Below, piece after piece: positions 5,193-61,623 of a stretch of 64,000 nt of DNA (within the stretch, counting starts at the first letter, position 1; every line of letters starts with the position of its first letter). This DNA is from an uncultured Thermoleophilia bacterium (GTDB lineage Bacteria > Actinomycetota > Thermoleophilia > UBA2241). The notes beneath the pieces are model-generated. The model was not told the origin of the DNA. It saw nothing but the letters and a program-made list of their open reading frames with translations, and searched no databases. The stretch spans positions 2,755 through 66,754 of the forward strand of contig CAVQXS010000001.1 of assembly GCA_963717965.1 (NCBI GenBank), given 5' to 3'. Position numbers and translations under genes: made by a program.

Positions 5193-5780
5193 ATGGCCGT
5201 CGTGCTCGAGCCGGATCCGCTGGCGCGGCTGCTCGTCGTGCCGGCCGTTGTCGCCCTCGGCTTCGCCGTCGCCGAAGACGCCTCCGGCGCGCCGGAGCGC
5301 CACCGGCCGGCGGCGGTCTTCGTGCCGTTGCACCGCGAGGACGACTGCCGCCGCGCCTGCGCGGCGGCGCGCGGCGCCCACGATCCCGGCGGGCGTGCTC
5401 CACTCGTCGTCGGCTACGGCGCGGGGCCGCCGGCGGTGCTCGCCGCGCACCTCGTGCACGGCTGCGCCGACGCCGTGCTGCGGCTGGAGGCCGCCGCCGG
5501 CCGGCCCTGCCTGGCGTATCTGCCGGCCGGCGGCGCGGTGACGGCGGCCGGCCTCACGGCGCGCGAGGCCGACGCGCTCGTCCTGCTGCTGCGAGGCCTG
5601 ACCACCCAGAGCATCGCCGCTCGCCTCTGCGTCTCGACGAGCACGGCGCGCAGCCACTGCCGGGCGGTGCTGCGCAAGCTCGGGGCCGGCGACCGGCGGG
5701 CGCTGCGCGCCCGGCTCCTCGCCGGCCCCGCCGACGCGCCGTCCGGGCCGCCGGTCACCGCGGCCCCGAGGTTTGACTAG
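5193..5780 (+). CDS. LuxR-family transcriptional regulator (C-terminal HTH); start uncertain
   Basis: C-terminal LTAREADALVLLLRGLTTQSIAARLCVSTSTARSHCRAVLRKLG. Ends in TAG 5778..5780. No clear RBS for any candidate start. Confidence 0.6.
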   Translation: MAVVLEPDPLARLLVVPAVVALGFAVAEDASGAPERHRPAAVFVPLHREDDCRRACAAARGAHDPGGRAPLVVGYGAGPPAVLAAHLVHGCADAVLRLEAAAGRPCLAYLPAGGAVTAAGLTAREADALVLLLRGLTTQSIAARLCVSTSTARSHCRAVLRKLGAGDRRALRARLLAGPADAPSGPPVTAAPRFD

Positions 5781-5925: not shown

Positions 5926-6025
5926 CATACTCGATGACAGGTCGTGCGCCCGCTGTTGTGCTCCACGTCCGGGGCCGTCTATGGTGGGCCGAGCACGAGG
6001 CCGAGGCCGAGGAGGACGTCGCCCG

Positions 6026-7459
6026 ATGCAGACGCAGATCCAGGTCCTCTCCGAGGACGAGAAGGCGCAGGTCCACGAGCGCACGCTCACGGTGCTGAGC
6101 ACCGTCGGCATGCGCTGCGACACCGCGGAGGGGCGCCGGATCCTCGCCGCCGCCGGCGCCCTCGTCGACGAGGGCGCGCGTAGGGTCCGTTTCCCGCCGG
6201 AACTGGTCGAGAGCCTGCTGGCGCGGGCCACGCGGCGGTTCACCGTGCACGGGCGGCGCCCGGACTGGAGCTTCCCGGTGGGCGCCGGCGCCTTCACGCT
6301 CCTGGCGGACGGCGGCGCCACGGCGGTCTTCGACACGACGACCGGGGAGCGCCGCCCCACCACGGCCGGCGACTGGCGGGCGGCGACGCGGCTGCTCGAC
6401 GCGCTGGACGACGTCGGCTTCTACTGGTGCCCCACCGATTACGCCGCGGACTACGAGCAGCCCGGGGGCTTCGTGCGCTACTACGCCGATGTGTTCGGCA
6501 CCTTCGGCAAACACGTCCAGGACTCGTTCGGGACGCCCGAGCTGGCGCCGTGGCTCAAGGAGGTCCTCGATATCGTCTTCGGCGGGCCCGAGACGGTGCG
6601 CGCCCGCATGCCGCTGTCGTTCCTGATCACCCCGGCCTCACCGCTGACCATCGAGCACGACTACACGCAGACCTGGCTCGAGCTGCGCGACTACGGCCTG
6701 CCGGTGGCGGTGATGCCGATGCCGCTGCAGGGCGCGACCGCGCCCGGCAGCCGGCTCGGCACCCTGCTGGCCGCCAACTGCGAGACGATCGGCACGCTGT
6801 GCCTCGTCCAGGCGGCCGCGCCCGGCACGCCGGTGTTCTACGCACCGGTGGTGGCGACGATGGACCCGCGCACCGGGCTCTACGCCGCCGGCGCGGTGGA
6901 GCACGCTGTCCTCTCGGTGGCAGGCACGGAGATGGCCCGCTGGTACGGCCTGCCGGCCGAGTCCTCGGGCCTCTGCACGCAGACCTACGAACCGGACCTG
7001 CAGACCGCCTGGGAGAAGGCGAACGGCGGCCTGCTCACCGTCCTCGCCGACCCGGACGTGCTCGTCGGCCCCGGACTGCTCGGGGGCGCCACCATCCTCT
7101 GCCTCGAGCAGATCGTCATGGACGTCGAGGTCGTCCGGCGCGCCCGGCAGGCCAGGACCGGCGTGCCGGTGCGTGACGACCTGTGGCTCGACGAGGTCCT
7201 CGACACGGTGGGACCGTGCGGCTCGTTCCTCGGCGAGCGCTCGACCCGCAGCGGCGTGCGCAGCGGCGAGTGGCGGCTCAGCGACTACGGCGTCCAGGGC
7301 AGCTGGGACGCGTGGCGGGTGGCGGGGTCGCCGACCACCGTCGCCGCCGCCCGTGAGCGCGTCGAGAGCATCCTCGCCGGTCAGGTCTCGCTGCCATATA
7401 GCGACGACCAGGCGGCGGCCCTCGCGGCGCTGCAGCGCCGCGCCGACGCCGCCTCGTAG
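6026..7459 (+). CDS. MttB-superfamily methyltransferase without in-frame TAG (non-pyrrolysine member; substrate unknown)
   Basis: 477 aa from MQTQIQVLSEDEKAQVHERTLTVLSTVGMRC..., with GAGGAGG upstream. Collinear by eye with the TAG-containing MttB at 33775, for example LPAESSGLCTQTYEPDLQTAWEK versus LPSYIAGA-TAG-GDSKLGDAQTGHEK. Confidence 0.85.
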   Translation: MQTQIQVLSEDEKAQVHERTLTVLSTVGMRCDTAEGRRILAAAGALVDEGARRVRFPPELVESLLARATRRFTVHGRRPDWSFPVGAGAFTLLADGGATAVFDTTTGERRPTTAGDWRAATRLLDALDDVGFYWCPTDYAADYEQPGGFVRYYADVFGTFGKHVQDSFGTPELAPWLKEVLDIVFGGPETVRARMPLSFLITPASPLTIEHDYTQTWLELRDYGLPVAVMPMPLQGATAPGSRLGTLLAANCETIGTLCLVQAAAPGTPVFYAPVVATMDPRTGLYAAGAVEHAVLSVAGTEMARWYGLPAESSGLCTQTYEPDLQTAWEKANGGLLTVLADPDVLVGPGLLGGATILCLEQIVMDVEVVRRARQARTGVPVRDDLWLDEVLDTVGPCGSFLGERSTRSGVRSGEWRLSDYGVQGSWDAWRVAGSPTTVAAARERVESILAGQVSLPYSDDQAAALAALQRRADAAS

Positions 7460-7517: not shown

Positions 7518-8822
<1,305 letters not shown>

Positions 8823-8905
8823 CGTACTCCTGGACGTCGCGGGCACAACGACGCGAGCCGCCGCTGCGTTCAAGCGTGCGGCAAGTATAGCGGGGTGCGA
8901 AACGG

Positions 8906-10430
8906 CTACGGGCGGATGACGACCGACATCCCGATGACCACCCTCGAGTAGAGGTCCTCGACCTCCCAGATGTGCATGCGGATGCAGCCGTGCGACGCGT
9001 AGGTGCCGATCGAGGAGTCGTCGGGGGTGCCGTGGATGCCGACGCCGGGGGCGCTGGTGCCGATCCAGCGCGTGCCCAGCGGGTTGTCGACGCCCGGAGG
9101 GATGGGCTTGGCGTCCTTCGCCCAGTCCGAGTTCGGCGGGAGCCACGTGGGGTTCATCTGCATCGAGGTGACCACGTACGAGCCCGTGGGCGTGGGATAC
9201 GCGGACTGGCCGGTCGCCACGGGGTAGCTCTTCACGAGCGCGCCGTTGCGATACAGGTACAGACGCAGGTCGCCGATGTCGACGACGATCTGGCCGCTGA
9301 GCGCGGTGAGCACGTTCCCGCCGACGATGCCGTCGACCTCGAGGCCGTACTTGGCCTGCAGCTTGCGGACGGCCTTCTCCGTGTCGGAGTCGTAGAATCC
9401 GCGACTTCTTGCCCGAGTACACGTCCGCGTTGATGAGCTTGGACTGCAGCTCCTTGACATCCTTGCCGCGAGCGCCGGGCCACAGCGTCGCCGAGCCAAA
9501 GCGCTCGGTGCTGTCCACGACGAAGGACTGCTTGTCGGTCACGACGTTGCCGCCCTTGTCGGCGGCGGTCACGACCACGGTGTGCCGACCCTGGGCGAGG
9601 TCCTTGACCTTGAATCGGGCCTTGGAGGCCGGGCCCGTCAGCTCGCGCTCCTCGCCATCGAAGACGAGCTTGACCGCGGGCACGCCGAGCTGGTCGGTGG
9701 CCTTGACGCGCAGCGTGACGGCGGCGTGCTTGACGGTCTTGTCGAGCTGCGTGGTCTTCAGGGTGGGGGGCACGGCATCGACGAAGACGCGGAGCCTCTT
9801 GGTCGTCGCGTTGCCGGCCCTGTCGGCCGTCGTGATCTCGACGCTGGAGGCGCCTTCGGGCAGATCGGCGCTCACCGCGTAGGCGCCCGCGGCGTCCGCC
9901 GTCCCGCTGGCGGTGATGGCGCCGTCGACCACGGTGACCGTCGCGTACGGCTCCGTCTTGCCGCTGAAGGTGGCGGGGTCGGTGTTGATGCGGCCCTCTT
10001 CCGCGCCGCCCTCGAGCTTGAGGGTCGGGATGCGCGTGTCGACGGTGAAGCGCCAGTCTTTGCGCACGTCGTGGCGGAAGAGGTTGGAGCTGGTCGCGCT
10101 GAAGGCGACGGCGTGGGCGCCGTCGGCGAGCTCGCCGGTGGTGAACGTGAGCGTATCTCCCTCGAAGGTGGCGGCGGCGGTGATGTCTTCGCCGTCGAGG
10201 GTGACGGCCATGTCCTTGAGCTTGGACAGCCCGTTGACGTTGAGGACCACCGTGGGCGAGGGGCTCTTGACGTACGTGTCCGGGCCGGGCGTCACCGCGG
10301 AGACGCGGGGGACGCCGTAAAGCTGCCAGCCAACGACGGCCGCGAACACACAAACCGCCGCAACGACGATGTACGGCCAGCGGCGGCGGCGATGGTCAGT
10401 TCGATACAGTTGGTACTGAGCGTCCGGCAC
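8906..10430 (-). CDS. Membrane-anchored L,D-transpeptidase (YkuD) with Ig-like repeats and a peptidoglycan-binding domain; one frame change near 9400
   Basis: GTG start with a TM anchor. PG-binding TEKAVRKLQAKYGLEVDGIVG. Catalytic GIHGTPDDSSIGTYASHGCIRM. N- and C-terminal parts lie in different frames. Ends in TAG. Confidence 0.8.
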
Positions 10431-33774: not shown

Positions 33775-35244
33775 GTGAAGCGAAACCTGTTCGCCGGCGG
33801 TCGCCGCAGCGGCGGCCTCCGGCTCGACGTGTTCACCGACGCCGAGCTCCAGGACATCCACCTCGCGACGCTGGAGATCCTGGAGCGGACCGGCGTCTGG
33901 GTGGAGATCGACGAGGCGCTCGACATCTTCGGCGACGGCGGGTGCGTCGTCGACCGGCAGACGCGCATCGTGCGCATCCCGCCGCACCTCGTGGAGGACG
34001 CGATCCGCAGCGCGCCCGCCAGCATCACCCTCTGCGGCCGCGACCCGAAGAACGACATCGTCGTCGAGGCCGGACGCGTGGGCTTCAGCAACTTCGGCGA
34101 GGGCGTGATGGTGGTCGACCCGCACAGCGGCGAGCTGCGCACGTCGACCAAGCAGGACCTCGCCGACATCGCCCGCGTCTGCGACGCGCTGCCCAACGTC
34201 GACGTCTTCGAGATCGCCGTCGGCGCCGGGGACAAGCCGCCGGCGACGGCGTCTGTCCACAACCACGAGGCGGCGATCGTCAATCAGACGAAGCCGATCT
34301 CCGGCGGTCCGCTCGACGGCCGCGCGGTCAGGATCAGCCTGCGGATGCTCGAGGCGGTGCAGGGCAGCCCGGAGGCGGTGTGCGAGCGGCCGATGATGAT
34401 CATGGGCACCTGCCCCGTGAGCCCGCTGAAGCTCGTCAAGGACTGCTGCGAGATCGTCATCGAGGCGGCGCGTGCCGGCGTGCCCAGCTGCGTGCTCAGC
34501 ATGGCGATGGCCGGCGGCTCCAGCCCGGTCACGCTGGCCGGGACGCTGGTGACGCACAACGCCGAGGTGCTGGCCGGCATCGTGCTCTCGCAGCTCACCG
34601 AGCGCGGCAGCAAGGTCCTGTACGGGAGCTCGACGACGGCGATGGACCTCAAGCTGGCGGCCGCCTCGGTCGGCTCGCCGGAGCTCGCCCTGATCAGCGC
34701 CGGCGTGGCCCAGCTCGCCCGGCAGTACCGCCTGCCCAGCTACATCGCCGGTGCGTAGGGCGACAGCAAGCTCGGTGACGCCCAGACCGGTCACGAGAAG
34801 ACCCTCACGGCTCTCGTAGCGGCGTTGGCAGGGACCAACCTGATCTACGGCCTGGGGATGATCGAGTCGGGCGTCACCTTCGACTACGCGCAGCTCGTCA
34901 TGGACGACGAGCTCGCGAGCATGGTGAAGCACGTGGTCGGGGGAATCCGCGTCGACGACGAGGCGCTGGCGGTGGACGACATCGCCGCGGTGGGGTCGTT
35001 CGGCGACTTCCTGAGCCTCGACGCGACGATGAGGCACATGCGCGAGGCCTCGCAGCCGGAGCTGCTCGACCGCCGCGTGCGCGAGGACTGGGAGGCGCGC
35101 GGGAGCAGCGACCTCCACCAGCGGTCGCTGGAGAAGGCGCGCCACATCCTGGAGACCCATCACCCGGAGCCGCTGCCCGGCGACGTGCTGCGGCGCATCC
35201 GCGCGATCGTCGACGACGCCGACCGCGAGCTGGCCGGGGGCTGA
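33775..35244 (+). CDS. mttB: Trimethylamine methyltransferase MttB homologue with in-frame TAG (candidate pyrrolysine codon) at 34756..34758
   Basis: ORF 33775..34758 (327 codons, then TAG) and ORF 34825..35244 share a frame. Sequence stays protein-like across the gap: [46 protein letters not shown]. Joined length is 489 aa. GGGAGG lies before the GTG. Final stop is TGA. Confidence 0.85.
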
Positions 35245-35291
35245 CGCGCCCGACCCGGACCGCGCGTCTGCGGCGCGCCGTGTGCGGGAGC

Positions 35292-35993
35292 TCAGCCGCC
35301 CGGCGGCGTGCTCAGCATGCCGATCACGGGGACCGGGCCGAGCGCGTCGCTCCAGCCGGTCGTGAGCATGACCTTGAGCGCGTAGCTCTGGCCGACGACG
35401 GTGTAGCTGAACGCGCCGAGGGTGGTGTCCGCGACCATGTCGGCGCCGGTCCACGGGTTCTTCGGCCAGACGTAGCTCGTCCCGAACATCGCCCCGGTCA
35501 CGTCGTCAGGCGCCGGGTACGCCCCGCCGTGCGTCGCGGCGTACGCCTCGACGTAGCGCTGCAGGAGGAGCAGGTTCTGCCTTGCCGCGGTGTTGCGCTC
35601 GCTCTTGAACCACGCCGGCATTCCACCGCTGAGCCGCCAGTCACCGCTGGACAGGTGGACGACGAGCTTGTAGCTGAGGCCGCTGGCGCTCGGCGTGTAC
35701 GTGTAGGTGCCCTTCGAGGTGCCCGGCCCCATGACCCTTCCGGTCCACGGGTTGGACGGCCAGATGATGGTCGAGGTCGGCAGACCGCCGCCCTTCTTCA
35801 CCATCGACTTCGGCGGATACACGAAGTGGTGGGCGACGCCGTAGTCGTTGACGTACTTCTGGATGAGGAGCGAGCCGGCCTGCACCTGCTTGTCGACGAA
35901 GCTGACGGCGTGCGCCTGTCGCGGGGTCGCCGCCGAGAGGGTGAGGGCAAGGGCCGCGGCCGCCAGGGCGACGACGATCCTGTGTCTGGTCAC
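35292..35993 (-). CDS. Secreted protein with two pilin-like WPxNPWTG modules
   Basis: GTG preceded by AGGAGG. Signal peptide ...LSAATPRQAHA. Modules are WPSNPWTGRVMGPGTSKGTYTYTPSASGLSYKLVVHLSSG and WPKNPWTGADMVADTTLGAFSYTVVGQSYALKVMLTTG. Confidence 0.65.
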   Translation of the reverse strand: MTRHRIVVALAAAALALTLSAATPRQAHAVSFVDKQVQAGSLLIQKYVNDYGVAHHFVYPPKSMVKKGGGLPTSTIIWPSNPWTGRVMGPGTSKGTYTYTPSASGLSYKLVVHLSSGDWRLSGGMPAWFKSERNTAARQNLLLLQRYVEAYAATHGGAYPAPDDVTGAMFGTSYVWPKNPWTGADMVADTTLGAFSYTVVGQSYALKVMLTTGWSDALGPVPVIGMLSTPPGG

Positions 35994-36013
35994 GAGGGTG
36001 CCTCCTGTGGTCG

Positions 36014-37042
36014 TCAGAGCTTCGCGGGGCCGGAGTCGCGCGCCGGCCCCGCAGGCGACGGCGCGGTGCCGCCGGCCTCGAAGTCGCCGGAGTGGAGGTG
36101 GATGGTGAGGACGTACGCCCCCGCCTCGGCGGGCGCGTACGTGTAAGAGCCCGGTCCGGGGCCCGGCAGCATCGCGGCGCCGCTGGTCGGGTCCTGCGGC
36201 CAGTCGGGGTGCGCCGCCCCCACGGCGGCGCCCGGCGCGAGATCCATGACCTGCGGCAGCGCGCCGCCGTGCTGCAGCGACCACTGGCCGACGTAGCCGG
36301 CGAGGATGCGCCCGTTCCGCCGCAGGATCTCATCTTCGAGGCTGGCGAGCAGGTGCTGCCACGGGCTGGTGACGGTCGTGCCGGTGAGCACGTAGTCGTT
36401 CTTGAGGGCGCGGTGCAGTCGCAGCGTGTACGACGCCCGGTCCGCCGCGACCTGGTAGGCGAACGACCCCTTGTCACGGCGCTGCGCCATCATCAGGTGG
36501 TCCCACGGGTTGCTGGGCCAGTAGTGGTGCCTGGGCTCGTTGCGGACGGCGCCGACGGCGCTCACATCGGCGGGCAGCGGGAAGCGGCCGTTGTGAGCGG
36601 CGGCGTAGTCCTCGACGTACTGGCGGATGAGGTTGATACCCTCTTCGCTGCGATGGTCGTAGGCGAGCATGATGGAGCGCGGCATGCCGCCGCTGACGGT
36701 GATGCTGCCGCCGGCGAGATAGCCGACCAGGCGGTAGCGCCGGCGGTCGGTCGTGACCGTGTAGGTGTAGTGGCCGCGCGTCGAGCCGGGGTGCAGGGCA
36801 CCGCCCGTCCAGGGGTTGACCGGCCACCACGTCCCGCCGAGATGGCCGGGGCGGACTGCCGTAGGCCGCGGGTACTCGAAGTAGCGCGCGGCCCCCTCGC
36901 GGTCGATGAGGCCGCGCAGGGCCATGACCGCCTGACGCATCTCGTCGTTGGCCGAGGCGGCGCGGGCCGGCGCGGAAGCGCCCGCGCCGAGGCAGACCGC
37001 CGCGAGCAGCACGGCGCCGAGCACGAGTATGCGTCGGATCAT
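36014..37042 (-). CDS. Secreted protein with three pilin-like modules
   Basis: Signal peptide MIRRILVLGAVLLAAVCLGAGASAPARA. Modules are WPVNPWTGGALHPGSTRGHYTYTV...YRLVGYLAGG, WPSNPWDHLMMAQRRDKGSFAYQV...YTLRLH, and WPQDPTSGAAMLPGPGPGSYTYAP...YVLTIHLHSG. Confidence 0.65.
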   Translation of the reverse strand: MIRRILVLGAVLLAAVCLGAGASAPARAASANDEMRQAVMALRGLIDREGAARYFEYPRPTAVRPGHLGGTWWPVNPWTGGALHPGSTRGHYTYTVTTDRRRYRLVGYLAGGSITVSGGMPRSIMLAYDHRSEEGINLIRQYVEDYAAAHNGRFPLPADVSAVGAVRNEPRHHYWPSNPWDHLMMAQRRDKGSFAYQVAADRASYTLRLHRALKNDYVLTGTTVTSPWQHLLASLEDEILRRNGRILAGYVGQWSLQHGGALPQVMDLAPGAAVGAAHPDWPQDPTSGAAMLPGPGPGSYTYAPAEAGAYVLTIHLHSGDFEAGGTAPSPAGPARDSGPAKL

Positions 37043-37192
37043 TGCGGTGTTCGGCCCCTTGTTCCGCTCCAGTGTGGCGGCGCACCCGATCACGGTCAAC
37101 CGCCCGGCGCACATCCGCGCGGCGCCTGCTGATACGATTCGCCGCGGGGCGCCGCGGGGCCTGCGGCCGGCGCCCGGCTGTCGAGACGCGAG

Positions 37193-38587
37193 GTGATGCC
37201 GGTGGAGGCGAAGATCCCCACGCGCATGGGCGATGGGTTCATGGTCGAGATGACGCGCAGCGAGCTGCGTGCCGACCTCGAGGACGCGACGCGGGCGGCG
37301 GCACGCAAGGCCAAGGCGCCGCCGCTCACTCCCGATGAGCTCGACCACCTGCTCGATATCTACGCCTCGCGCGCCGCCTTCACCGCCGTCGACATCGGCG
37401 ACCAGGTGGTCCTCAGCTGCGACGGCGGCGGCAGCAAGATGACCGGCACCGACCTGCTCGACCTGCTCGAGAGCGAGCAGCGCCTGGGCCAGGACATCCT
37501 CGAGCTCTGGCACATCGAGTACAGCTACAAGGCGATCAAGACGATCCTGCCGTTCCAGCAGCAGGTGATGCAGAACTGCCAGCTGATGATGACGGCGCCG
37601 GTGCAGTACGGCGCCCAGCCCAACCTGGCCTTCTACAGCAAGCCGGACGGGCCGGCGGACAACTGGTTCGAGCTGCTGCCGCGCGGCGAGATCGCCGGCG
37701 CCCGCGCGGCCATCGACGAGGCCATGGACCACGCCACCAAGGACTTCATCTACGTGGGCGAGGGCATGCTGGAGGCCGGCGCCGACGGCATGGACTTCGA
37801 CACCACCGGCGGCGCCGGCGACGCCGACTTCTTCAGCACGCTGCGCGCGGTGAAGCACCTGCGCGCGAAGTACCCGGACGCCGGCATCGAGGTCGGCATG
37901 GCCGGCGAGTTCGTGATCGGCGTGCACGGCGAGCTCGAGTGGGACGGCCGCCGGCTCGCCGGGCTGTGGCCGAAGGAGCAGCTCGAGGTGTGCCAGGACG
38001 CCGGCGCCACCATCTTCGGGCCGGCGGTCAACATCCGCACGGGCAAGAGCTGCGCCTGGAACACCGCCTACTCGATCACGGTGATGAAGCCGTGCATGGA
38101 CGTGGCCCGCATCCCCGTGCATCCCAACGTCGGCGAGGGCGTGGGCGGCGTGCCGGTGAACGGCTACCCGCCCGAGGACGCGGCGTCCCGGGCGGCCAAG
38201 GCGCACGTAGACCTGCTGCGCTGCGACGGGTTGTAGGTGGGCTCGGGTGACTCCAGAGGCATGGATGTCACCCACGCGCTCGCCGCGGGCATGGGCGGGA
38301 TGCGCACGGCCGGAGACCTGGTCGCGCGCATGCAAATGGCCCGCGGGATGCGCCTTCCGGAGGCGAAGAGCTACGTCGCGGACCGCCTCGGCTGCACCGT
38401 CCGCGACCTCAGCGACAGCTACGCGATGGAGCAGATCCGCGGCGAGAAAGGCCTGGGGCGGATCCTCGACCACTCCAACCTGCACCCGGGCGAGCCGAAC
38501 GCGATGATGGCCAAGTTCCGCATCGCCGAGCTGCTCGGCGTGCCGATCAGCTCGGTGGAGCGCTTTCGGGAGCTGGCGGGGCTGTAG
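37193..38587 (+). CDS. mtbB: Dimethylamine methyltransferase MtbB homologue with in-frame TAG (candidate pyrrolysine codon) at 38234..38236
   Basis: ORF 37193..38236 is followed without a gap by same-frame ORF 38237..38587. Blocks RMGDG, FDTTGGAGDADFF, AGLWP, LRCDGL-TAG-VGSGDS and RTAGDLVARMQ match my recollection of methanogen MtbB. Joined length is 464 aa. The terminal stop is also TAG. Confidence 0.9.
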
Positions 38588-39071: not shown

Positions 39072-39196
39072 CTGCGAAGTGACGTGAACACGGGAAGCAG
39101 CCGCGGCCGCGGGGAGGCCGACCGAGGACCGCTTCAGCCGGCGGCGAACGCTGCCGATGGATGGACACACGTCGAGCCACCGCCGGAGGCAGGCAC

Positions 39197-39580
39197 ATGA
39201 AACGGATCGCGGGCATCGCCCTCATCGTCGTCGTGGCGCTCGCCGTCACCGGGGCGTTCGCCGGCTGCGGCTGCCAGGAGCAGGCGGTGGAGAACACCAC
39301 CGGGACGATCGACGTGGCCAAGGACGCGGCGGCCAAGGCCCAGCTGGTGCCGATCAAGACCGCCGTGCAGTCCTACGTCATCTCCAACGGCGCGCTGCCG
39401 CCCGACGCTTCGCAGGCGACCCTCGGGGGCTTCGTCCAGCCGTGGCCGACGAACCCCTTCACCAACGCACCGATGAAGCAGGGCGACGGCGTGGGCGACT
39501 ACGTCTACACGCCCGGGGCCGGGACCGACTTCACGCTTGCGGTCCACCTCTCCGACGGGAGCACCGCCACAGCGCCGTGA
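39197..39580 (+). CDS. Lipoprotein with one pilin-like module
   Basis: MKRIAGIALIVVVALAVTGAFAGCGC lipobox, then IKTAVQSYVISNGALPPD...WPTNPFTNAPMKQGDGVGDYVYTPGAGTDFTLAVHLSDG. Confidence 0.65.
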   Translation: MKRIAGIALIVVVALAVTGAFAGCGCQEQAVENTTGTIDVAKDAAAKAQLVPIKTAVQSYVISNGALPPDASQATLGGFVQPWPTNPFTNAPMKQGDGVGDYVYTPGAGTDFTLAVHLSDGSTATAP

Positions 39581-39662: not shown

Positions 39663-41039
39663 TCAGGCGCCGATGAGCTTCTTGACGTAGGTCGCCCGCT
39701 TGCTCGGGCGACCCGTACGCGCCTCGGCGTCGTCGGCGCTGCCCATCGCCGCCAGGGCGACGTTGACGCCCAGCCAGCGCAACGGTTCCGGCTCCCATGG
39801 CTTGGAGCGGTGGCCCACCCACGGGAGACCCGTCAGCTCCGTCTGCTGCCCGAGGATGAGGTCGCGCAGGGTGCGGCCGGCGAGGTTCGTGGTGGACACG
39901 CCGTCGCCGACGTAGGCGCCGGCCCAGGCCATGCCGGTGGGCCGGTCAAGCCCGACCGTGGTGTACCAGTCGCGTGCCGCGGCGATGGCGCCGCCCCAGT
40001 GATGTGTCACCCGGGCGTCGCCGATGGCGGGGAAGAGCTCGGCGAGCAGCGCGCGGAGGTGATCCTGCACCTCAGGCACGCGCTCGAACGCTTCGCTGAG
40101 GCGCGAGCCGAAGTGGTACGGCGCCCCGCGCCCGCCGATCGCAATGCGCCCGTCCTCCGTGTGCATCGCATAGAAGATCAGGAAGCGGAAGTCGCCGAAC
40201 ACCTCGTGGCCGCCCCAGCCGACCTCGTCCCAGAAGGCGTCGGGGAGCGGCTCGGTGCCGATCATCAGCGAGTAGATCGGCACGACCGCGCGTTCGTAGC
40301 CGGGCAGCTCGGGGGTGAACGCCTCCGTGGCGCGCACGATGACGTCGGCGCGCACGTCGCCGAACACGGTGGTCGCGACGTGCGGTTCGATGCGGGTGAC
40401 GGGGGTGCGCTCGTAGATGGGCACCCCCAGGCGCTCGACGACGTCGGCGAGGCCGCGGGCGAGTCGGGCCGGATCGACGGCGGCGCCGTGCGGCGTGTAG
40501 CCGGCGCCGAGGCATCCGGCGACCTTGATGCGCTCGCGCATGTCGGCGGCGCCCAGCATGACGTAGTCGTCCTCGCCGAACCCCCACTCGCGTTCGTAGT
40601 CGACGGCTTCGCGCAGCCGCAGTAGTTGCACCGGCGTCAAGGCGAGGTCGAGCTGGCCGCCGAGGCGGAAGCGCGCGTCGATGCCCTCCTGGTCCACGAC
40701 GCGCGCGATCTCGTAGACCGTCTGGTGGAGGGCGCGCTGCTGGTCGATGACCGGCTGCCGGCCGTGCGTCTTCGCCGCGGCCTCGCGCGAGCCCGGGAAC
40801 GTGGTGTGACACCAGCCGCCGTTGCGCCCCGAGGCGCCGAATCCGGCGATCTCGCGCTCCAGCACGGCGACCCGCAGGCGCGGGTCGGCCTCCTTGAGGT
40901 AGTACGCCGTCCAGAGGCCGGTGAAGCCCGCGCCGACGACGGCGACATCGAACTCGGCGGGTCCGGGGAGCGAAGGACGCGGGGTCAGCTCGCCGGGGAC
41001 GCCGTCGAGCCACATGCTGCGCGCGCGGTAGTCAGTCAT
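39663..41039 (-). CDS. FAD-dependent oxidoreductase (DAO family)
   Basis: 458 aa with FDVAVVGAGFTGLWTAYYL and GASGRNGG. AGGAG lies before the ATG. Confidence 0.85.
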   Translation of the reverse strand: MTDYRARSMWLDGVPGELTPRPSLPGPAEFDVAVVGAGFTGLWTAYYLKEADPRLRVAVLEREIAGFGASGRNGGWCHTTFPGSREAAAKTHGRQPVIDQQRALHQTVYEIARVVDQEGIDARFRLGGQLDLALTPVQLLRLREAVDYEREWGFGEDDYVMLGAADMRERIKVAGCLGAGYTPHGAAVDPARLARGLADVVERLGVPIYERTPVTRIEPHVATTVFGDVRADVIVRATEAFTPELPGYERAVVPIYSLMIGTEPLPDAFWDEVGWGGHEVFGDFRFLIFYAMHTEDGRIAIGGRGAPYHFGSRLSEAFERVPEVQDHLRALLAELFPAIGDARVTHHWGGAIAAARDWYTTVGLDRPTGMAWAGAYVGDGVSTTNLAGRTLRDLILGQQTELTGLPWVGHRSKPWEPEPLRWLGVNVALAAMGSADDAEARTGRPSKRATYVKKLIGA

Positions 41040-42763: not shown

Positions 42764-43804
42764 TCATGGGACGGAGTAGGTGAGGCCGTTGCTCAGGTAG
42801 CCGGTCAGCTTGTAGCTCTGGCCGCCGGCCAGCTGCTCGTAGACGTAGCTGCCCGGGGCCGTGCCCGGCGTCATCGGCTGCCCGGTGAACGGGTTGGTCG
42901 GCCATGGGTCCACGTATTGCGAGATCCCGCCGCCCTCGACGACGTCCTGCGGCGGCGGGTAGAGGTTGTTGTTGGCGCTCGCCCACGTGACGATGCCCAC
43001 CTGCAGCTTGGCGATGCCGTCGATCGCCTGCTGGTCGGCGCTCGGCGATCCCGACGCGCTCGGGCTCGGGCTGGGCGTCGGCGACGTCGTCGCGGACGGC
43101 GACGGGCTGGGCGTCGGCGACGGGGTCGGCGTCGGACTCGCGGGCAGGAGGACGTCGACGCGCACGAAGGTGACGGGGTCGAGCTGCAGGTCGCCCGACG
43201 TGAACTGGAGCCTCAGGCTGTCGTTCGCGCTCTCGTGCGTCAGCGTCCCCTTCACCGTGCCGGTCACGCCGGTCATGCCCAGCGCCGAGGCCTGCACGCT
43301 CAGCTGGAGCGCGCCGTCGACGAGGTCGGCGGTGGTGGAGCCGGCCCGCTGGAGCTGGCCGTCGTACTGAGTGATCTTGAACTGGTCGCCCTCGGCCTGG
43401 GCGATGACGAGCCCGCCGCCGGTGCCGGCCTCCGGCGCCCAGGTGCCGATGAACTCCTCGCCGGCGGTGGACGAATCGGTGGGCCGCAAGTAGAAGAACC
43501 AGAGTGCGGCCACCGCGGCGACGATCGCGAGCACGAGGAGGAGCCAGACCCACCACGGCACGCCGCCGCCGGAGCTCCGGGAGTGCGTCAGAAGGATGGT
43601 CGGCTGTGAAGGCGGCGGGGGCGGCGGAGACGCGGCGCCCGCCGCCGGCATCACCCGCGTCGCCGACGTGTCCTGGCCGCCCATGACCTGCGTCGCGCCT
43701 TCGTCGGCGGGCGGCATCACCCGCGTCACGTCGTCCGCGTCGGGGGGCGTCGCCCTGGTCAGCTCGGTATCGTCGGGCGCCCTGCCCGTGGTCTCGTCGT
43801 CCAT
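42764..43804 (-). CDS. Membrane-anchored protein: cytoplasmic tail, TM, beta-rich module, Pro/Thr/Ser linker, C-terminal pilin-like module
   Basis: TM WWVWLLLVLAIVAAVAALWFFYL. Then GEEFIGTWAPEAG..., linker PTPTPSPTPSPSPSATTSPTPSPSPS, and WPTNPFTGQPMTPGTAPGSYVYEQLAGGQSYKLTGYLSNG. Confidence 0.65.
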   Translation of the reverse strand: MDDETTGRAPDDTELTRATPPDADDVTRVMPPADEGATQVMGGQDTSATRVMPAAGAASPPPPPPSQPTILLTHSRSSGGGVPWWVWLLLVLAIVAAVAALWFFYLRPTDSSTAGEEFIGTWAPEAGTGGGLVIAQAEGDQFKITQYDGQLQRAGSTTADLVDGALQLSVQASALGMTGVTGTVKGTLTHESANDSLRLQFTSGDLQLDPVTFVRVDVLLPASPTPTPSPTPSPSPSATTSPTPSPSPSASGSPSADQQAIDGIAKLQVGIVTWASANNNLYPPPQDVVEGGGISQYVDPWPTNPFTGQPMTPGTAPGSYVYEQLAGGQSYKLTGYLSNGLTYSVP

Positions 43805-45284: not shown

Positions 45285-45749
45285 TTGACGCGCAGGGGGT
45301 TCCTGAAGTGGCTCATCGCCGGCTTCGGCGTGGTCTCGCTCGCCGGCGTGCTCTATCCCATCGCGCGGTTCCTCAAGCCTCCCGCGGCCGTATCGGGAGC
45401 CATCGGCCAGGTCGCCAGCGTCGGCACCCTCGACACGTTTCCCGCCGGGCAACTGACGGCGGTCGTCGTCGGCGGACAGCCGGCCGCAGTCCAGAACATG
45501 AACGGGAAGTACACCGTGTACTCGCTCATCTGCACGCATCTGGGCTGCGTCCTCGCCATCACCGGCGACACCCTTCACTGTCCCTGCCACGGCAGTGAAT
45601 TCTCCGCCACGGGCACCGTCACCCACGGGCCCGCGACCCTGCCGCTGCCCACGTATCACTCGCAGACGCAGAACGACTCACTCCTCGTGGGCCCGATCGA
45701 TCTGAGCCGTGCCGCGTATCCGGCCTGGTATACGGGGGAGTTCGGATGA
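45285..45749 (+). CDS. Rieske 2Fe-2S subunit of the cytochrome bc/b6f-type complex
   Basis: Twin-arginine-like MTRRGFLKWLIAG, then CTHLGC and CPCHGS. Confidence 0.85.
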   Translation: MTRRGFLKWLIAGFGVVSLAGVLYPIARFLKPPAAVSGAIGQVASVGTLDTFPAGQLTAVVVGGQPAAVQNMNGKYTVYSLICTHLGCVLAITGDTLHCPCHGSEFSATGTVTHGPATLPLPTYHSQTQNDSLLVGPIDLSRAAYPAWYTGEFG

Positions 45750-46450
45750 GCACGACCGAGGGCACCGGCCCGGGGGCGCCCGGCGCTCCCATGCCGGCCG
45801 AGAAGGGCGTCGTCCCGTGGGTGGTCCGCCGCCTCGGGCTCACGGCCACGATGGAGGACCAGTACAACCGCATCGTGCCGATGCACGCGACGAACTACAT
45901 CTACTGCTTCGGCGGCATCGCCTTCGTCCTCTTCATCATCCTGGCGGTGACCGGCATCCTGCTGGCGGTGTACTACGAACCGACGCCGGACACCGCGTAC
46001 CAGAGCGTCCTCAACATCTCCACGCACGTGCAGTTCGGCTGGTGGATCCGCTCGATCCACCGCTGGGCGGCCGGCGGCATGGTCCTGCTCGTCTTCGTGC
46101 ACCTGCTGCGCGTGTTCTTCACCGGCGCGTACAAGGCGCCACGCGAGCTCAACTGGCTCACCGGCGTGGCGCTCCTCCTCATCACCCTGGGCTTCGGCTT
46201 CACCGGCTATCTGCTGCCGTGGGACCAGAAGGCGTACTGGGCGACCAAGGTGGGCACCGACATCGCCGGCTCGGTGCCCGTGATCGGCCACTTCCTGCTC
46301 GTGAGCCTGCGTGGCGGCGAGCAGATCAGCGCCGCCACCCTCGGCCGCTTCTACGACCTCCACGTGCTGGTGCTGCCGGCCGTCATCGTCGTCCTGCTCC
46401 TCGGGCACTTCTGGATGATCCGCCGCCACGGCATCTCCGGGCGGCTGTAG
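45746..46450 (+). CDS. Cytochrome b6-type subunit (N-terminal half of cytochrome b)
   Basis: 234 aa with FGGIAFVLFIILAVTG, IRSIHRWAAGGMVLLVFVHLLRVFFTGAYK, TGYLLPWDQ. Ends in TAG. Confidence 0.9.
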   Translation: MSTTEGTGPGAPGAPMPAEKGVVPWVVRRLGLTATMEDQYNRIVPMHATNYIYCFGGIAFVLFIILAVTGILLAVYYEPTPDTAYQSVLNISTHVQFGWWIRSIHRWAAGGMVLLVFVHLLRVFFTGAYKAPRELNWLTGVALLLITLGFGFTGYLLPWDQKAYWATKVGTDIAGSVPVIGHFLLVSLRGGEQISAATLGRFYDLHVLVLPAVIVVLLLGHFWMIRRHGISGRL

Positions 46451-46460
46451 GAGGGGCGTG

Positions 46461-46910
46461 ATGACGAAGAAGACACGCAGGGCGTACCCGACCAACGAAC
46501 CGCCGCGGTTCTACTGGGAGATGTGGCGCGACCCGGGGCAGGGCTACATCCCGTACTTCTGGGAGGAGCTCACGTCCCAGGCGATGATGTTCTTCCTCTT
46601 CCTCGGTGTGATCGGGGGCGTCGCGCTGCTCTGGCCGGCCGACCTGGCGCCGCAGGCGAACGTGCTGGTGACGCCGTCCGGCATCAAGCCCGAGTGGTAC
46701 TTCCTCGGGCTGTTCCAGCTGATCAAGGTGATCCCGGAGATCGCCGGGATCGTGCTCGTGGCGGTCGTCGTCCTGCTGATGGTGATCCTGCCGTTCGTGG
46801 ACCGGAGTCCCGAGCGCAATCCGCTGCGCAAGCCCGTGACGACGACGGTCGCCGTCATCGTCATCGTCGCTCTCATCGTCCTCACGATCTGGGGAGCGGT
46901 GACGCCGTGA
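46461..46910 (+). CDS. Subunit-IV-like protein (C-terminal half of cytochrome b)
   Basis: IKPEWYFLGLFQLIK motif with 3 TM helices. AGGAGG lies upstream. Confidence 0.85.
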   Translation: MTKKTRRAYPTNEPPRFYWEMWRDPGQGYIPYFWEELTSQAMMFFLFLGVIGGVALLWPADLAPQANVLVTPSGIKPEWYFLGLFQLIKVIPEIAGIVLVAVVVLLMVILPFVDRSPERNPLRKPVTTTVAVIVIVALIVLTIWGAVTP

Positions 46911-46927
46911 TCTCCCGGGGAGGGAAC

Positions 46928-47791
46928 ATGAACCGAGTCCTGTGGTGGCTCGTCCCGGCACTGGTCGTCGCGAGCGCCGTGGTGGCCGCCGGGTGCGCGA
47001 GCCTCGCCACCCCGGAAGCGCCCAGCACGGCGTCGCCGACGGCCACGGGCACCGCGGTCGCCAGCGTGAGCCAGCAGGTCAAGGACGGCGGGCAGCTCTA
47101 CGTGGACCTCGCCTGCGTCCGCTGCCACGCGCCCAACGGCGCCGGCGGCGTCCCCAACCAGCTGAACGTCGGCGGCGACAGCACGATCCCGCCGCTCAAC
47201 AACCAGTTCCGCGACCAGAGCGAGCAGTTCCGCAGCGCGCCGCAGATCACCCAGGTGCTCCAGGAGGGCGGCATCGTCAGCAAGAAGCCGGGCGTGATCA
47301 ACATGCCGTCCTGGAAGGGCGTCATCAACGATGCTCAGGCCAACGCCATCGCCGCCTACATCCTCGCCGGCTTCCCGAACACGGGGGCGAGCTACGATCC
47401 CGACCCGGCGAAAGCCGAGGACATCTACAGCGCCTACGCCTGCATCGACTGCCACGGTCAGGTCGGCGGTACGTCGTCGCCGTCGCCGGCGCCCAACCCG
47501 AAGACCGCCGACAAGGTCGTGCCGGCCCTGCGCAATCCGGACGACCCGGTGCCCATGAGTGAGCTGCGGTCTGTGCTCATGGAGGGGTCGATCCCAGACC
47601 CCGGGACGAAGGGCGTCATCTTCATGCCGGCGTGGGGGCAGGTCTTGTCGGTGGACCAAATGAACACGATCCTGCCCTACGTGGTCGACGGGCCGAAGGC
47701 CACGAAGCTGCCGGCGCCGCCGGCGGCAACGCCACTGCCGCTCTCCGGCGGTGCCTCATCGCCGGCCCCGTCGAGCTCGGCGTCGCCATGA
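46928..47791 (+). CDS. Di-haem cytochrome c lipoprotein
   Basis: Lipobox VVAAGCAS. Two haem motifs, CVRCH and CIDCH. Pro/Ser-rich tail. Confidence 0.8.
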   Translation: MNRVLWWLVPALVVASAVVAAGCASLATPEAPSTASPTATGTAVASVSQQVKDGGQLYVDLACVRCHAPNGAGGVPNQLNVGGDSTIPPLNNQFRDQSEQFRSAPQITQVLQEGGIVSKKPGVINMPSWKGVINDAQANAIAAYILAGFPNTGASYDPDPAKAEDIYSAYACIDCHGQVGGTSSPSPAPNPKTADKVVPALRNPDDPVPMSELRSVLMEGSIPDPGTKGVIFMPAWGQVLSVDQMNTILPYVVDGPKATKLPAPPAATPLPLSGGASSPAPSSSASP

Positions 47792-48159: not shown

Positions 48160-49099
48160 TCAGCCGTCGAGCCGCCTCGCGTACAGCTCGTAGGCGGAGC
48201 TCGCCTGCATGCCGGCGCGCTCGTACAGGCGCAGCGGCATCGTCTTCCCCTCCGCGTCGACGCCGAGGTCGACGCGGGACTGGCCGCGGCGGAAGAACTC
48301 GGCGAAGGCGTGCGTGAGCAGCGCGCCGCCCAGGCCCAGCCGCCGCCACGGGCGGCGCACGCCGAGCCCCTTGACCCAGCCGAGGTCGCCGTGGTCGTAG
48401 GCGATGAGCGCGCCGGCCGCCTCGTCACCGTCCCACGCGAGCCACCAGAGGCCAGGGTCGAAGTCGGCGTGGCCGAGCAGCCGGGCGCGCCACGCGTCGA
48501 AGGGCTCCTCGCTCTGGCGAAAGTGGTCCTCGAAGGCTTCGTTCATGGTCGCGTGCATCGTGCGCTCATCGGCCTCGAGCCGGAAGGGCCGGATCTCGAG
48601 GCCCTCGGGCACGGCGAGCTGCGGGACGCCGGCGGCGAGGTCGATGGTCATGCGGTACACCGTGCGCTTGAGCGCGTACCCGTGCCGGTGGAGCAGATCC
48701 CGCTTGGAGCGGTTGGCGCGTGATGCAGAAGACGTCCAGCGAGGGTTCGGGGTAGCCGCGCTCGACGGCGAGCTGGGCGGCCCGCCGCTCGGCGAGGCCG
48801 AGGAGCCGGCCGCCGAGCTCGGGTTCGTGATGGTCGGGGTGCACCCAGAGGTCCGCCTCCATCTCCCCGGTGCGGAACTGGTCGCCGGCGTACGCGTACC
48901 CCACCAGCTCCCCGCCGGGGCTCTCCGCGACCCACGCGTCGCGCCCCAGGTCGAAGCCCTCCATCGCCCAGTCGCTCTCGAGGTCGCCGAGGGTGCTGTC
49001 CGGCTCGCCGGTCTCGGCGACGTCGCAGGCGTTCAGCAGGTCGACGATCTCCGGCGCGTCGCCGCGCGTGGCCGGACGGATGCGGCTGGGCGCGCTCAT
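48160..49099 (-). CDS. Two-domain GNAT acetyltransferase (MshD-like architecture); one frame change near 48715
   Basis: N-terminal GNAT MSAPSRIRPATRGDAPEIVDLLNACD... and C-terminal GNAT ...VKGLGVRRPWRRLGLGGALLTHAF lie in different frames. Confidence 0.7.
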
Positions 49100-49779
49100 G
49101 TCGACCCGGCCACGTCCTTGGTCAGCGGGATGGTCTCGTCGAAGTCCTGTCCGGAGGCCGACGTACCGACGATGCGCAGGCTCAGGTGGGTGGCGTCGAC
49201 GCTCGAGAAGACCATGCGGAAGTCGCCGGCGAGCGCCTTGAGCGCCTCCTTGAAGCGCTCCGCGTTGCTCTCTCCGGCGATCTGCGAGAAGTCGTCCATC
49301 GTGACGACCAGGTCGGCGCCGTCGAGGCGCGCCGGAACCGTGACCTTCTGGCTCTCCTGGGAACCGCTCAGCGTGAGGGAGAAGGCGTCCGCACTCTTGG
49401 CGATCACCGCGGTGGTGATGCCCTGCTGCGTCGTCGTCCACGTCCCGAGGAACTCCTCGCCGCTCGTGGACGGGCCGCGGAGGGCGAAGAACCACACCGC
49501 GACGATCGCGACGATCGCGAGGACGGCGATGATGATGACGAGCCGGAGCAGGCCGGACGAGCCGGATCGCTGCGGAGCGGCAGCCGCAGTCGCGGGCTGC
49601 GGCTGGTACTCCGGCAGCCAGTCCGACGACGATCCGGACGAACCGGGCGGAGCGCCTCCGGCGCCGCCTCCGGTCCCCGGCGCGCCGGCCAGACCAGCCC
49701 CGGCGACCGGCGCCCCGCAGCGCCCGCAGGTCCAGTCGTCCTCTTTGAGCGCAGCGCCGCAGCTCGGGCAGTCGGTCAT
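49096..49779 (-). CDS. Zinc-ribbon / TM / beta-rich-module protein
   Basis: MTDCPSCGAALKEDDWTCGRCG, Gly/Pro linker, TM LLRLVIIIAVLAIVAIVAVWFFAL, then GEEFLGTWTTTQQG... Confidence 0.6.
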   Translation of the reverse strand: MTDCPSCGAALKEDDWTCGRCGAPVAGAGLAGAPGTGGGAGGAPPGSSGSSSDWLPEYQPQPATAAAAPQRSGSSGLLRLVIIIAVLAIVAIVAVWFFALRGPSTSGEEFLGTWTTTQQGITTAVIAKSADAFSLTLSGSQESQKVTVPARLDGADLVVTMDDFSQIAGESNAERFKEALKALAGDFRMVFSSVDATHLSLRIVGTSASGQDFDETIPLTKDVAGST

Positions 49780-49790
49780 GTCGTCCCCTC

Positions 49791-51093
49791 TCAGAACTCG
49801 AGCTTCTCCAGCCGCCCGAAGATCACGTCGCGGCCGGCGCGGTACTGATCCGGGTCCATGGCGGCGTCGATCTCCTTCGCCGTCATCACCTGCATCGCCT
49901 CGTCGTTCTGCTTGATGAGCAGCCCGAAGTCGACGCCTTCACGCCAGGCGTGCATCGCCGCGTCCTGCACGACGCGGTAGGCGTCCTCGCGCAGCATGCC
50001 CTTGTCGACGAGGGCCAGCAGGACCGCCCCGCTGAAGACGAGGCGGTAGCTCTGGCCCAGGTTCGCCAGCATGCGTTCCTCGTCGACGACGAGTGTGTCG
50101 ACGAGCCTGGTGAACTTCTGCAGCATGTAGTCGAGGAGGATCGTGCTGTCCGGCAGCACGATGCGCTCGGCGGAGCTGTGGCTGATGTCGCGCTCGTGCC
50201 AGAGGGCGACGTTCTCCATGCCCACGAGCGCGTTGCCGCGCAGCACGCGCGCGCAGCCGGCCATGCGCTCGCTGAGGATCGGGTTGCGCTTGTGGGGCAT
50301 CGCCGACGACCCCTTCTGGCCCTTGCCGAACGCCTCCTCGGCCTCACGCACCTCGGTGCGCTGCAGGTGCCGCACCTCGGTCGCGAACTTCTCGATGCTC
50401 GAGCCGATGATGGCGATGCAGGCGAGGAAGGCGGCGTGACGGTCGCGCTGCACGACCTGGTTGCTGATCGGCTCGCGGCCGATGCCGAGCTCTTCGCAGA
50501 CGAGGTCCTCGACCCGCGGGTCGATGTTGTTGTAGGCGCCGACGGCGCCGCTGATCTTGCCGACCGAGGCGTTCACCGTGACGACGCGCATGCGTTTGAG
50601 GTGACGGCTGACCTCGAACGCCCAGATGCCGAGCTTCATGCCGAAGGTGATGGGCTCGGCGTGGATGCCGTGCGTGCGCCCCACCTCGACAGCGTCCCGG
50701 AACTCGAAGGCGCGCCGCTTGAGCACCTCGCCCAGCGCGACGAGGTCGCGCTCGAGGAGCAGCCCGGCGCGCTGGATCTGCAAGCGCCAGCGCCGTGTCG
50801 AGCATGTCGCTGCTCGTCATCCCGTAGTGCACGTACTTGCTGGCGTCGCCGACGTACTCGGCGACGTTGGTGAGGAAGGCGATGACGTCGTGGTTGGTCG
50901 TCGCCTCGATCTCGTTGACGCGGGCGACGTCGAAGGCGGCCTTGGCCTCGATCTCGGCGACCGCGTCGTGCGGCACCTTGCCGAGCTTCTCCCAGGCCTT
51001 CACGGCGGCGATCTCGACGTCGAGCCAGGCCTGCATCCTGGCCTCGTCGGTCCAGATCGCGCCCATCTCAGGGAGCGTGTAGCGCTCGATCAT
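49791..51093 (-). CDS. purB: Adenylosuccinate lyase; one frame change near 50782
   Basis: MIERYTLPEMGAIWTDEARMQAWLDVE...GMTSSDMLDTALAL is in one frame. QIQRAGLLLERDL...GSSAMPHKRNP... is in the next. The junction lies at a 2-nt homopolymer. Confidence 0.9.
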
Positions 51094-51338
51094 CGCGTGC
51101 CCTCCGCCGCCGCTGGCGTCACGGACCGGCCGGGCCCCGGCCGCCTCCGTCTGTCGTCGGCGCGATTCTCTCACACCGGCCCGGCGGACGGGGGGCGAGC
51201 GCGGCGGGTGCGACGGGTCGTGCGGGCGCCGGCGGGGCCGTGCCGGCCCGGCGCCCTCTGGCGCCGCGCGCCCGTCGGGTTCAGAATCGAAGAAGAGGCG
51301 GCGGCGCTGCCGCAGGCACGGACAGGGAGGGTGACGAG

Positions 51339-59058: not shown

Positions 59059-61623
<2,565 letters not shown>

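Follow-up and report, generated by a model that had tools for sequence, protein, structure and literature searches.

The mttB and mtbB genes

We consider here a stretch of DNA of 64,000 nucleotides from an uncultured Thermoleophilia bacterium (GenBank assembly GCA_963717965.1, contig CAVQXS010000001.1, positions 2,755 to 66,754 of the forward strand; hereafter the window, with positions counted from its first letter), and focus on two of its genes, mttB and mtbB, which encode methyltransferases of the pyrrolysine (Pyl) type. Each has one in-frame TAG as its sole internal stop. The genes and these codons lie as follows.

33775..35244, plus strand: mttB, Pyl-type trimethylamine:corrinoid methyltransferase, 489 codons including the Pyl codon, with a TGA stop at 35242-35244
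34756..34758, plus strand: in-frame TAG of mttB, the Pyl codon, read from the sequence
37193..38587, plus strand: mtbB, Pyl-type dimethylamine:corrinoid methyltransferase, 464 codons including the Pyl codon
38234..38236, plus strand: in-frame TAG of mtbB, the Pyl codon, read from the sequence

An earlier note, made from the sequence of the window, had called both genes Pyl-type, and profile and structure comparisons bear this out. First of all, the mttB product, with its TAG bridged, matches Pfam MTTB (PF06253, E=2.7e-93) and scores 699.3 bits against the curated NCBIfam equivalog TIGR02369 (cut-off 525), covering positions 2-469 of the 469 in the profile. Second, the bridged mtbB product matches Pfam Dimeth_Pyl (PF09505, E=6.7e-154) over positions 4-462 of 463 and scores 391.9 bits against the equivalog TIGR02368, whose cut-off is 369.1. 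Third, the mttB product aligns over its full length with the structures of Methanosarcina barkeri MttB (7XCL/7XCM, E=6e-125), and its TAG falls exactly on residue 334 of 7XCL, which is Pyl (printed X) in the context YVAGS-X-SDAK. This alignment onto an experimentally mapped Pyl residue applies to mttB, while the TAG of mtbB is assigned from the family match and from conservation. The identity of both genes and the exact Pyl position of mttB are established here. Neither gene has additional stops or frameshifts, and the guanine-plus-cytosine content at third codon positions (GC3) is 0.93-0.98 in all four pieces, that is, in both genes on either side of the TAG, as in host genes (0.97-0.98 on either side in mttB). 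The terminal stop of mtbB is likewise TAG, at 38585-38587.

Conservation and selection across the internal TAG codons

Relatives of the locus were sought in one genome per species, using GTDB species representatives. This yielded 58 loci whose MtbB is 81-97% identical to that of the window; the label is uncultured Thermoleophilia for nearly all of them, Actinomycetes or Actinomycetota for the others, and Deltaproteobacteria for one. The next tier of MtbB homologues, outside the Thermoleophilia clade, stands at only about 58-66%. Many of the 58 loci belong to long-read soil metagenome-assembled genomes (MAGs) that bear MFD isolate names; peat, digesters and lake water or sediment supplied others, and one (L035, palsa_647, MtbB 87%) is from a Stordalen Mire MAG. 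Around the locus, alignments of 9-17 kb between the window and several of these relatives show 81-86% nucleotide identity, and the window reaches at most about 86% with any species representative; judged by these identities, it is a separate species-level relative within the Thermoleophilia-labelled group. The actinobacterium-like flavour sensed in the earlier note was therefore right at class level, since the relatives are labelled Thermoleophilia (Actinomycetota). The locus is syntenic across dozens of Thermoleophilia-labelled MAGs, with a DAO-family oxidoreductase, a quinone oxidoreductase and aroA as flanks. The locus labelled 'Deltaproteobacteria bacterium MAG248' (L028, JBLMXT010000388.1) carries an mtbB 93% identical to that of the window and shares 82.6% nucleotide identity with it over 9 kb; it is probably a mis-binned Thermoleophilia contig.

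Across this group, the TAG at the Pyl position is kept in 55/55 copies of mtbB (relatives and other fetched loci) and in 32/32 copies of mttB (fetched relative loci), always with the C-terminal part in frame. The ratio of nonsynonymous to synonymous substitution rates (dN/dS) is 0.47 upstream and 0.46 downstream of the TAG in mttB, and 0.25-0.28 upstream against 0.14-0.23 downstream in mtbB. Selection is thus about equal on the two sides and, together with the high GC3 of all pieces, this indicates that the sequence after the TAG is selected as protein. Databases contain many homologues of the MtbB N-terminal part, 82-92% identical to it (one partial match reaches 95%), and nearly all of them end at about 344-346 amino acids, the site of the TAG, where a gene caller would terminate. 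We also considered whether the internal TAGs are assembly errors, and rejected this because the codon is conserved across the lineage.

Location of the Pyl machinery in relatives

The earlier note had seen no corrinoid protein, MT2 methyltransferase, RamA-type activase, PylS, PylB, PylC, PylD or tRNA in the 64 kb, and our searches uphold it. ARAGORN found no tRNA in the window; the roughly 60 window open reading frames (ORFs) scanned against Pfam, with genes called by third-position GC, gave no B12-binding, URO-D/MT2, RamA or Pyl-biosynthesis match; and tblastn of the relatives' PylSc, PylSn, PylB, PylC, PylD and corrinoid protein against the window returned no true match, the sole one being the ATP-grasp domain of PurD (E=5e-6 against PylC). 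The window likewise has no corrinoid protein of the TIGR02370 family, so that the cognate corrinoid partner of a three-component system is not part of it. In the relatives, no pyl or corrinoid gene occurs within 10 kb of mtbB in 58/58 loci, which makes the dispersed layout the rule in this lineage.

PylSc genes were then sought separately. The catalytic domain of Methanosarcina mazei PylS, identical to 2Q7E, was run in an exhaustive search of 50%-identity representatives, while a word-index search with M. mazei PylS gave Methanosarcina-type matches only. A PylSc with a high-GC-looking composition, picked among the matches of the representative search, served as the second query. It returned 2,879 matches to high-GC PylSc homologues in a protein search, the best 120 of the 2,879 at 63-78% identity to the query, and some of these 120 are already named by NCBI as the PylS large subunit of Thermoleophilia or Actinobacteria.

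Three of the PylSc matches were placed on contigs. On contig_4140 (506,942 bp, MFD01721.bin.1.253), mttB and mtbB (94% amino acid identity) lie within 158-179 kb in an arrangement syntenic with the window, to which the mtbB locus is 83.5% identical in nucleotides over 12.9 kb. The same contig carries, at 399-420 kb, pylSc, pylSn, tRNA-Pyl(CUA), pylD, pylC, a frame-broken pylB and a cognate corrinoid protein. PylSc scores 322 bits (cut-off 178), PylSn 123 (51), PylD 192 (150) and PylC 331 (248), and the corrinoid protein, which directly adjoins pylSc, scores 229 bits against TIGR02370 (cut-off 215); the pylB fragment is the sole member of the set not above its curated cut-off. On contig_19728 (1,137,818 bp), an mtbB at 85% identity lies with mttB within 380-401 kb and PylSc within 647-668 kb; other pyl genes and a tRNA were not found in the 21 kb read around this pylSc. 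The third genome has pylSc, pylSn, pylT, pylD, pylC and an intact pylB (424 bits, cut-off 348). In all three genomes pylSc occupies one shared housekeeping position, with a gene for N-acetylmuramoyl-L-alanine amidase and two pmbA/tldD-family genes next to it. In the Pyl-decoding Firmicutes Desulfitobacterium hafniense and Acetohalobium arabaticum, methyltransferase, corrinoid and pyl genes are clustered; in the window's lineage, by contrast, they are dispersed, with mtbB and PylSc about 230-260 kb apart on the same contig in two relatives. The context that the earlier note found unusual is hence not so for this group. Among the relatives, mttB and mtbB are separated by anything from 6 bp to 5.9 kb, so that the secreted-protein genes inserted there in the window are a habit of the lineage. 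The pair and its context are not a new mechanism or system; they are the lineage's normal layout.

Several further observations were made at these loci. Within 647-668 kb of contig_19728 (L003, 11137-12830), a second, divergent mtbB, 63% identical to that of the window and with its TAG kept, directly adjoins pylSc; alongside lie only a C-terminal mttB remnant and a TetR gene, which points to gene duplication and decay inside the lineage. Beside the pyl cluster and split pylB of contig_4140 (L064, 17060-18101 and 18868-20861) are an aldehyde:ferredoxin oxidoreductase, a polyferredoxin and ThiS. These neighbours hint that metabolism may be anaerobic or facultative in this lineage, which has a bc-type respiratory complex as well. 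Conserved mtbB neighbours that are absent from the window were considered as parts of the methyltransferase system and rejected: SufBD/ABC, rubredoxin, GNAT, Gfo/Idh/MocA, a hexapeptide transferase, PurB, UDP-glucose dehydrogenase and two families with no Pfam match.

Interpretation of the pair

The two genes very probably encode functional Pyl enzymes served by a distant pyl locus and are not relics. We consider it likely, in full, that MttB and MtbB are working, Pyl-dependent enzymes whose UAG is read as Pyl by a distant system of pylT, pylSc plus pylSn, and pylBCD. The products of pylBCD would make Pyl, PylSc and PylSn would together load it onto tRNA-Pyl, and the internal UAGs would be read accordingly as Pyl. 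The pyl system would occupy a conserved housekeeping locus of its own, hundreds of kb away from mttB and mtbB, with the cognate corrinoid protein in the same cluster as the pyl genes, as seen in one relative. MttB would strip a methyl group from trimethylamine (TMA), and MtbB then one from dimethylamine, onto a Co(I) corrinoid protein. By analogy with three-component systems, the methyl group would then be passed on, probably to tetrahydrofolate through an MT2-type enzyme, and the corrinoid would be reactivated reductively by an activase. Pyl-tRNA and release factor would compete at UAG, as in other Pyl-decoding bacteria, and what limits read-through of ordinary TAGs may be regulation of pyl expression, tolerance or the local context in the mRNA.

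Several points weigh against this reading. First of all, we infer Pyl insertion and the substrates of MttB and MtbB, and the published evidence for Actinobacteriota mttB and mtbB consists of transcripts only (PMC10805028). Second, we infer the pyl locus of the window's own genome from relatives at about 83-86% nucleotide identity. Third, the pylB of contig_4140 is split over two frames, by either an assembly indel or a real defect, and frameshifts in purA and purB show that the sequence quality of the window itself is imperfect. Finally, the search for MT2 and RamA covered the window and the fetched loci, and the window ORFs have no Pfam match to either.

UAG as stop and as probable sense codon

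TAG is an ordinary stop in this DNA. The 65 ORFs of the window end in TGA (50), TAG (14, about 22%) or TAA (1); all 12 TAG stops listed in the earlier note are present, and two more lie at 18048 and 25739. In the relatives' loci, with the Pyl positions removed, about 140 of 691 ORFs (some 20%) end in TAG. Tandem back-up stops behind TAG-terminated genes were considered and rejected: the next in-frame stop follows at a median of 165 codons after TAG, as against 55 after TGA, and the nearby second in-frame stop that the earlier note proposed to look for does not occur close behind these genes. With TAG a frequent ordinary stop, the decoding of UAG must be competitive or conditional; the view of the earlier note, that UAG is decoded ambiguously or conditionally, holds in that the codon has two meanings here. 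In Methanosarcina TAG is rarely used as a stop, in contrast to the roughly 20% of ORFs that end in TAG in the window's lineage.

The most direct case is mtbB itself, which ends in TAG in 31/55 relatives against the background of about 20%, while mttB ends in TGA in 30/32. Where mtbB ends in TAG and also has its internal TAG, a single mRNA must read one UAG and stop at another. Read-through of the terminal TAG of the window's mtbB would add 38 codons, and the 3' end of the gene overlaps a convergent membrane-protein gene (38547-39053/39170). The coexistence of TAG stops with Pyl, which the earlier note counted among the unusual features, is already described for Desulfitobacterium hafniense, a Pyl-decoding bacterium in which UAG is a frequent stop codon (PMC1976440). 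In Acetohalobium arabaticum the code is expanded only during growth on TMA (Prat et al. 2012, as cited in PMC3941956), and a mechanism that would target Pyl insertion is not known from any organism (PMC12626013).

RNA elements after the internal UAGs

The stretches that follow the two internal UAGs hold these elements.

34756..34855, plus strand: PYLIS_3-like stretch after the mttB UAG (Rfam RF02510, 63.7 bits against a gathering score of 38)
38246-38272 (helix 1) and 38302-38329 (helix 3), plus strand: two conserved hairpins after the mtbB UAG, inside the PYLIS_2 match at 38234-38333

Both Rfam matches span the full model (1-100) and start exactly at the UAG, that of mtbB (RF02509) scoring 59.3 bits against a gathering score of 36. 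In mttB, the stretch at 34756-34875 has near-invariant nucleotides in 26 relatives whose proteins share only 67-91% identity; it keeps rare TTG, GCA and GGT codons and has the lowest synonymous-site entropy of the gene. In mtbB, the 100 nucleotides after the UAG fold better than shuffled sequences (z=-2.9), and helix 3 has three covarying pairs across 41 distinct sequences, with 38 double-change cells against 14.2+-2.5 in shuffles (0/500 reach the observed value) and far fewer in slid controls. Helix 1 is invariant, including a rare GGT codon, and is broken in the divergent second mtbB of L003. These hairpins and this invariance fit a local context effect on UAG decoding, as judged from sequence comparison, without amounting to proof of one.

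These elements bear on an addition to the preferred reading, namely that recoding is site-specific: PYLIS-like mRNA elements would favour Pyl insertion locally and spare the ordinary TAGs. The above-threshold matches to both models, beginning exactly at the two UAGs, the fold and covarying hairpin of mtbB, the low synonymous variability and retained rare codons of mttB, and the mtbB mRNAs that must read one UAG and stop at another all speak for it. On the other hand, the covariation may reflect only a few inherited events, and synonymous diversity is even lower at mtbB codons 96-125 than in the post-UAG stretch; codon selection in conserved protein segments can produce the same pattern. The mttB stretch of the window, taken alone, is not exceptionally stable (z=-0.7). 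Published work, moreover, reports no common structure in bacterial Pyl genes (PMC1976440), and the lack of any known targeting mechanism, noted above, also speaks against it. We regard site-specific recoding as an unlikely addition.

Alternative readings

The earlier note had named two outcomes that would overturn its view: that the contig belongs to an already described Pyl-decoding lineage with a standard gene neighbourhood, or that the genome has no Pyl machinery and the genes are relict pseudogenes. The first was found to hold at most in part, no formally described lineage with such a neighbourhood having been shown. The second would mean that the machinery was lost in the lineage or the organism and that both genes now end at TAG as decaying remnants. 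The 64 kb with neither pyl gene nor tRNA would agree with this, as would the relative with a degraded mttB remnant beside a second mtbB. It is contradicted by the retention of TAG with in-frame C-terminal parts in every mtbB and mttB copy compared, by purifying selection downstream of the TAG equal to that upstream, and by PylSc on the contigs of window-like mtbB genes in two relatives, with the rest of the machinery on one of them; furthermore, the pair is free of other stops and frameshifts although the assembly has indels in purA and purB. We regard this relict reading as very unlikely.

It is highly improbable that the pair is a methyltransferase island recently acquired by horizontal transfer from Firmicutes or Deltaproteobacteria and still without ties to a Pyl system of the host. 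In favour of this, gene transfer is commonly considered the way in which bacterial Pyl systems spread (PMC11764691), and the pair is interrupted by unrelated genes. Against this, both genes have the GC3 of host genes, synteny of the locus extends across dozens of Thermoleophilia-labelled MAGs, and its nearest homologues nearly all carry that label, with a wide step down to the next tier. Termination at TAG without Pyl, giving two assembling polypeptides or a functional truncated product, is likewise highly improbable: the GTG directly after the mtbB TAG, through which an ORF finder lists the C-terminal part as an ORF of its own, would favour it, but the TAG stands at the catalytic Pyl position of a solved MttB, the C-terminal parts begin at the very next codon and so leave no room for ribosome-binding spacing, and relatives keep the full Pyl system.

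Relation to known Pyl-decoding systems

The enzymes and the decoding system, as proposed in the preferred reading of distant Pyl decoding, are standard. By equivalog models, MttB and MtbB belong to the same families as the archaeal enzymes of M. barkeri, which work with MttC and MtbC; mttB, as described, aligns with the M. barkeri enzyme over its full length with TAG at Pyl334, and the Rfam models PYLIS_2 and PYLIS_3 match the window genes. The window differs from Methanosarcina in that its host is a high-GC bacterium, that PylS is split into PylSc and PylSn in its relatives, and that its methyltransferase genes do not adjoin corrinoid protein genes. Desulfitobacterium hafniense and Acetohalobium arabaticum (Firmicutes) resemble the lineage in their split PylSc/PylSn, pylBCD and pylT; the former uses UAG as a frequent stop as well (PMC1976440), and in the latter Pyl use can depend on TMA (Prat et al. 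2012, as cited in PMC3941956). These Firmicutes differ in phylum, GC content and respiratory gene content, apart from their clustered genes. Deltaproteobacteria (the Olavius delta1 symbiont and marine sediment lineages) have a Pyl-type MttB, several MtbB and a full pyl set (PMC1976440, PMC8318568). They belong to another phylum and also encode selenocysteine, and homologues outside Thermoleophilia are only about 58-66% identical to MtbB.

The lineage is on record but barely described. Guo et al. list two Actinobacteria among 81 bacterial genomes with pyrrolysyl-tRNA synthetase (PylRS) (PMC9630628), and Ellenbogen et al. report expression of Pyl-type mttB and mtbB by Actinobacteriota MAGs of Stordalen Mire (PMC10805028); both most likely concern the same lineage as the window, and neither gives a gene layout, pyl locus or TAG usage for this group. 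A full-text literature search for Thermoleophilia and pyrrolysine together returned a single paper, in which each term occurs once. What is particular to the lineage is that its genes are dispersed and that the clade is broad.

The use of methylamines through Pyl is as a rule attributed to methanogens, along with a few anaerobic Firmicutes and Deltaproteobacteria. The window, the 58 relative loci and the separate PylSc matches suggest that a common soil and wetland actinobacterial class carries the trait, and because standard gene callers split such genes at TAG, methylamine turnover by this group is easily overlooked in metagenome annotation. Since the lineage keeps TAG as a frequent stop, it could serve the study of bacteria that live with an ambiguous UAG. 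We put forward, quite tentatively, the wider proposal that Thermoleophilia form a large, vertically inheriting and largely undescribed Pyl-decoding clade of soils, peat and lake sediments, with dispersed genes, about 20% TAG stops, an mtbB that mostly ends in TAG, and partly covarying post-UAG hairpins that could favour Pyl insertion. Should the hairpins prove active, these organisms, which carry a bc-type respiratory complex, would offer a natural example among bacteria of UAG recoding directed by context.

Other features of the window

The window has a GC content of 67-75% and carries a cluster for Rieske protein, cytochrome b (split) and cytochrome c at 45285-47791, with GNAT genes at 48160-49495. 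Around the pair are genes for an amino-acid permease, a molybdopterin oxidoreductase, an Orn/DAP/Arg-type decarboxylase, a rubredoxin, a DAO-family oxidoreductase dependent on flavin adenine dinucleotide (FAD), an S-adenosylmethionine (SAM) methyltransferase, a quinone oxidoreductase and aroA. The DAO-family FAD oxidoreductase (39663-41039, minus strand) is the most conserved neighbour of mtbB, found in 40/58 relative loci; among the NCBIfam models it comes closest to the one for a putative aminophosphonate oxidoreductase, with 224 bits where the cut-off is 633. The decarboxylase and the rubredoxin recur upstream of mttB in relatives.

The earlier note had correctly placed two opposite-strand secreted repeat proteins between mttB and mtbB. 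Both ORFs are confirmed, and both genes have signal-peptide-like N-termini.

35292..36284, minus strand, likely start near 35993: intervening secreted repeat protein 1, from its ORF and GC3 pattern, with a WPxNPWTG-type motif
36014..37042, minus strand: intervening secreted repeat protein 2, 342 amino acids, signal-peptide-like N-terminus MIRRILVLGAVLLAAV, from its ORF, frame plot and start position

Neither has a Pfam or NCBIfam match. They belong to a paralogous secreted family of the window (35292-36284 and 36014-37042, both minus strand; 39161-39580, plus strand; 42764-43804, minus strand), built of modules of about 100 amino acids that end in a 'WPxNPWTGxxM...GxYxY' motif, and likewise without a Pfam or NCBIfam match. 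The WPxNPWTG-type motif presumably resembles the C-terminal part of GspG-type pseudopilins. In 54 relative loci the family clusters as 191 ORFs, a count in which it is merged with N-terminal pieces of mttB.

Several genes of the window are broken. The purA gene (59059-60550) is frameshifted near 59600-59610, purB (49791-51285) at about 50782, as judged against an intact orthologue in a relative (L024), and the S9 peptidase region (2695-4610) has several frame changes, while the ORF at 7518-10430 fuses an Ig-domain protein and a DUF1015 protein through out-of-frame sequence. All of these are most likely assembly indels rather than pseudogenes.

Finally, the window holds a third gene of the MttB superfamily, which the earlier note had overlooked.

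5981..7459, plus strand: MttB-superfamily gene of the non-Pyl type, 492 amino acids, with no internal stop and ending in TAG

It matches Pfam MTTB (E=3.9e-63) and scores 283 bits against TIGR02369, below the cut-off of 525; on both counts used here it belongs with the non-Pyl MttB superfamily (quaternary-amine methyltransferases such as MtgB). A LuxR-type regulator at 5031-5780, which also ends in TAG, adjoins it, and the gene probably encodes a quaternary-amine-type methyltransferase.

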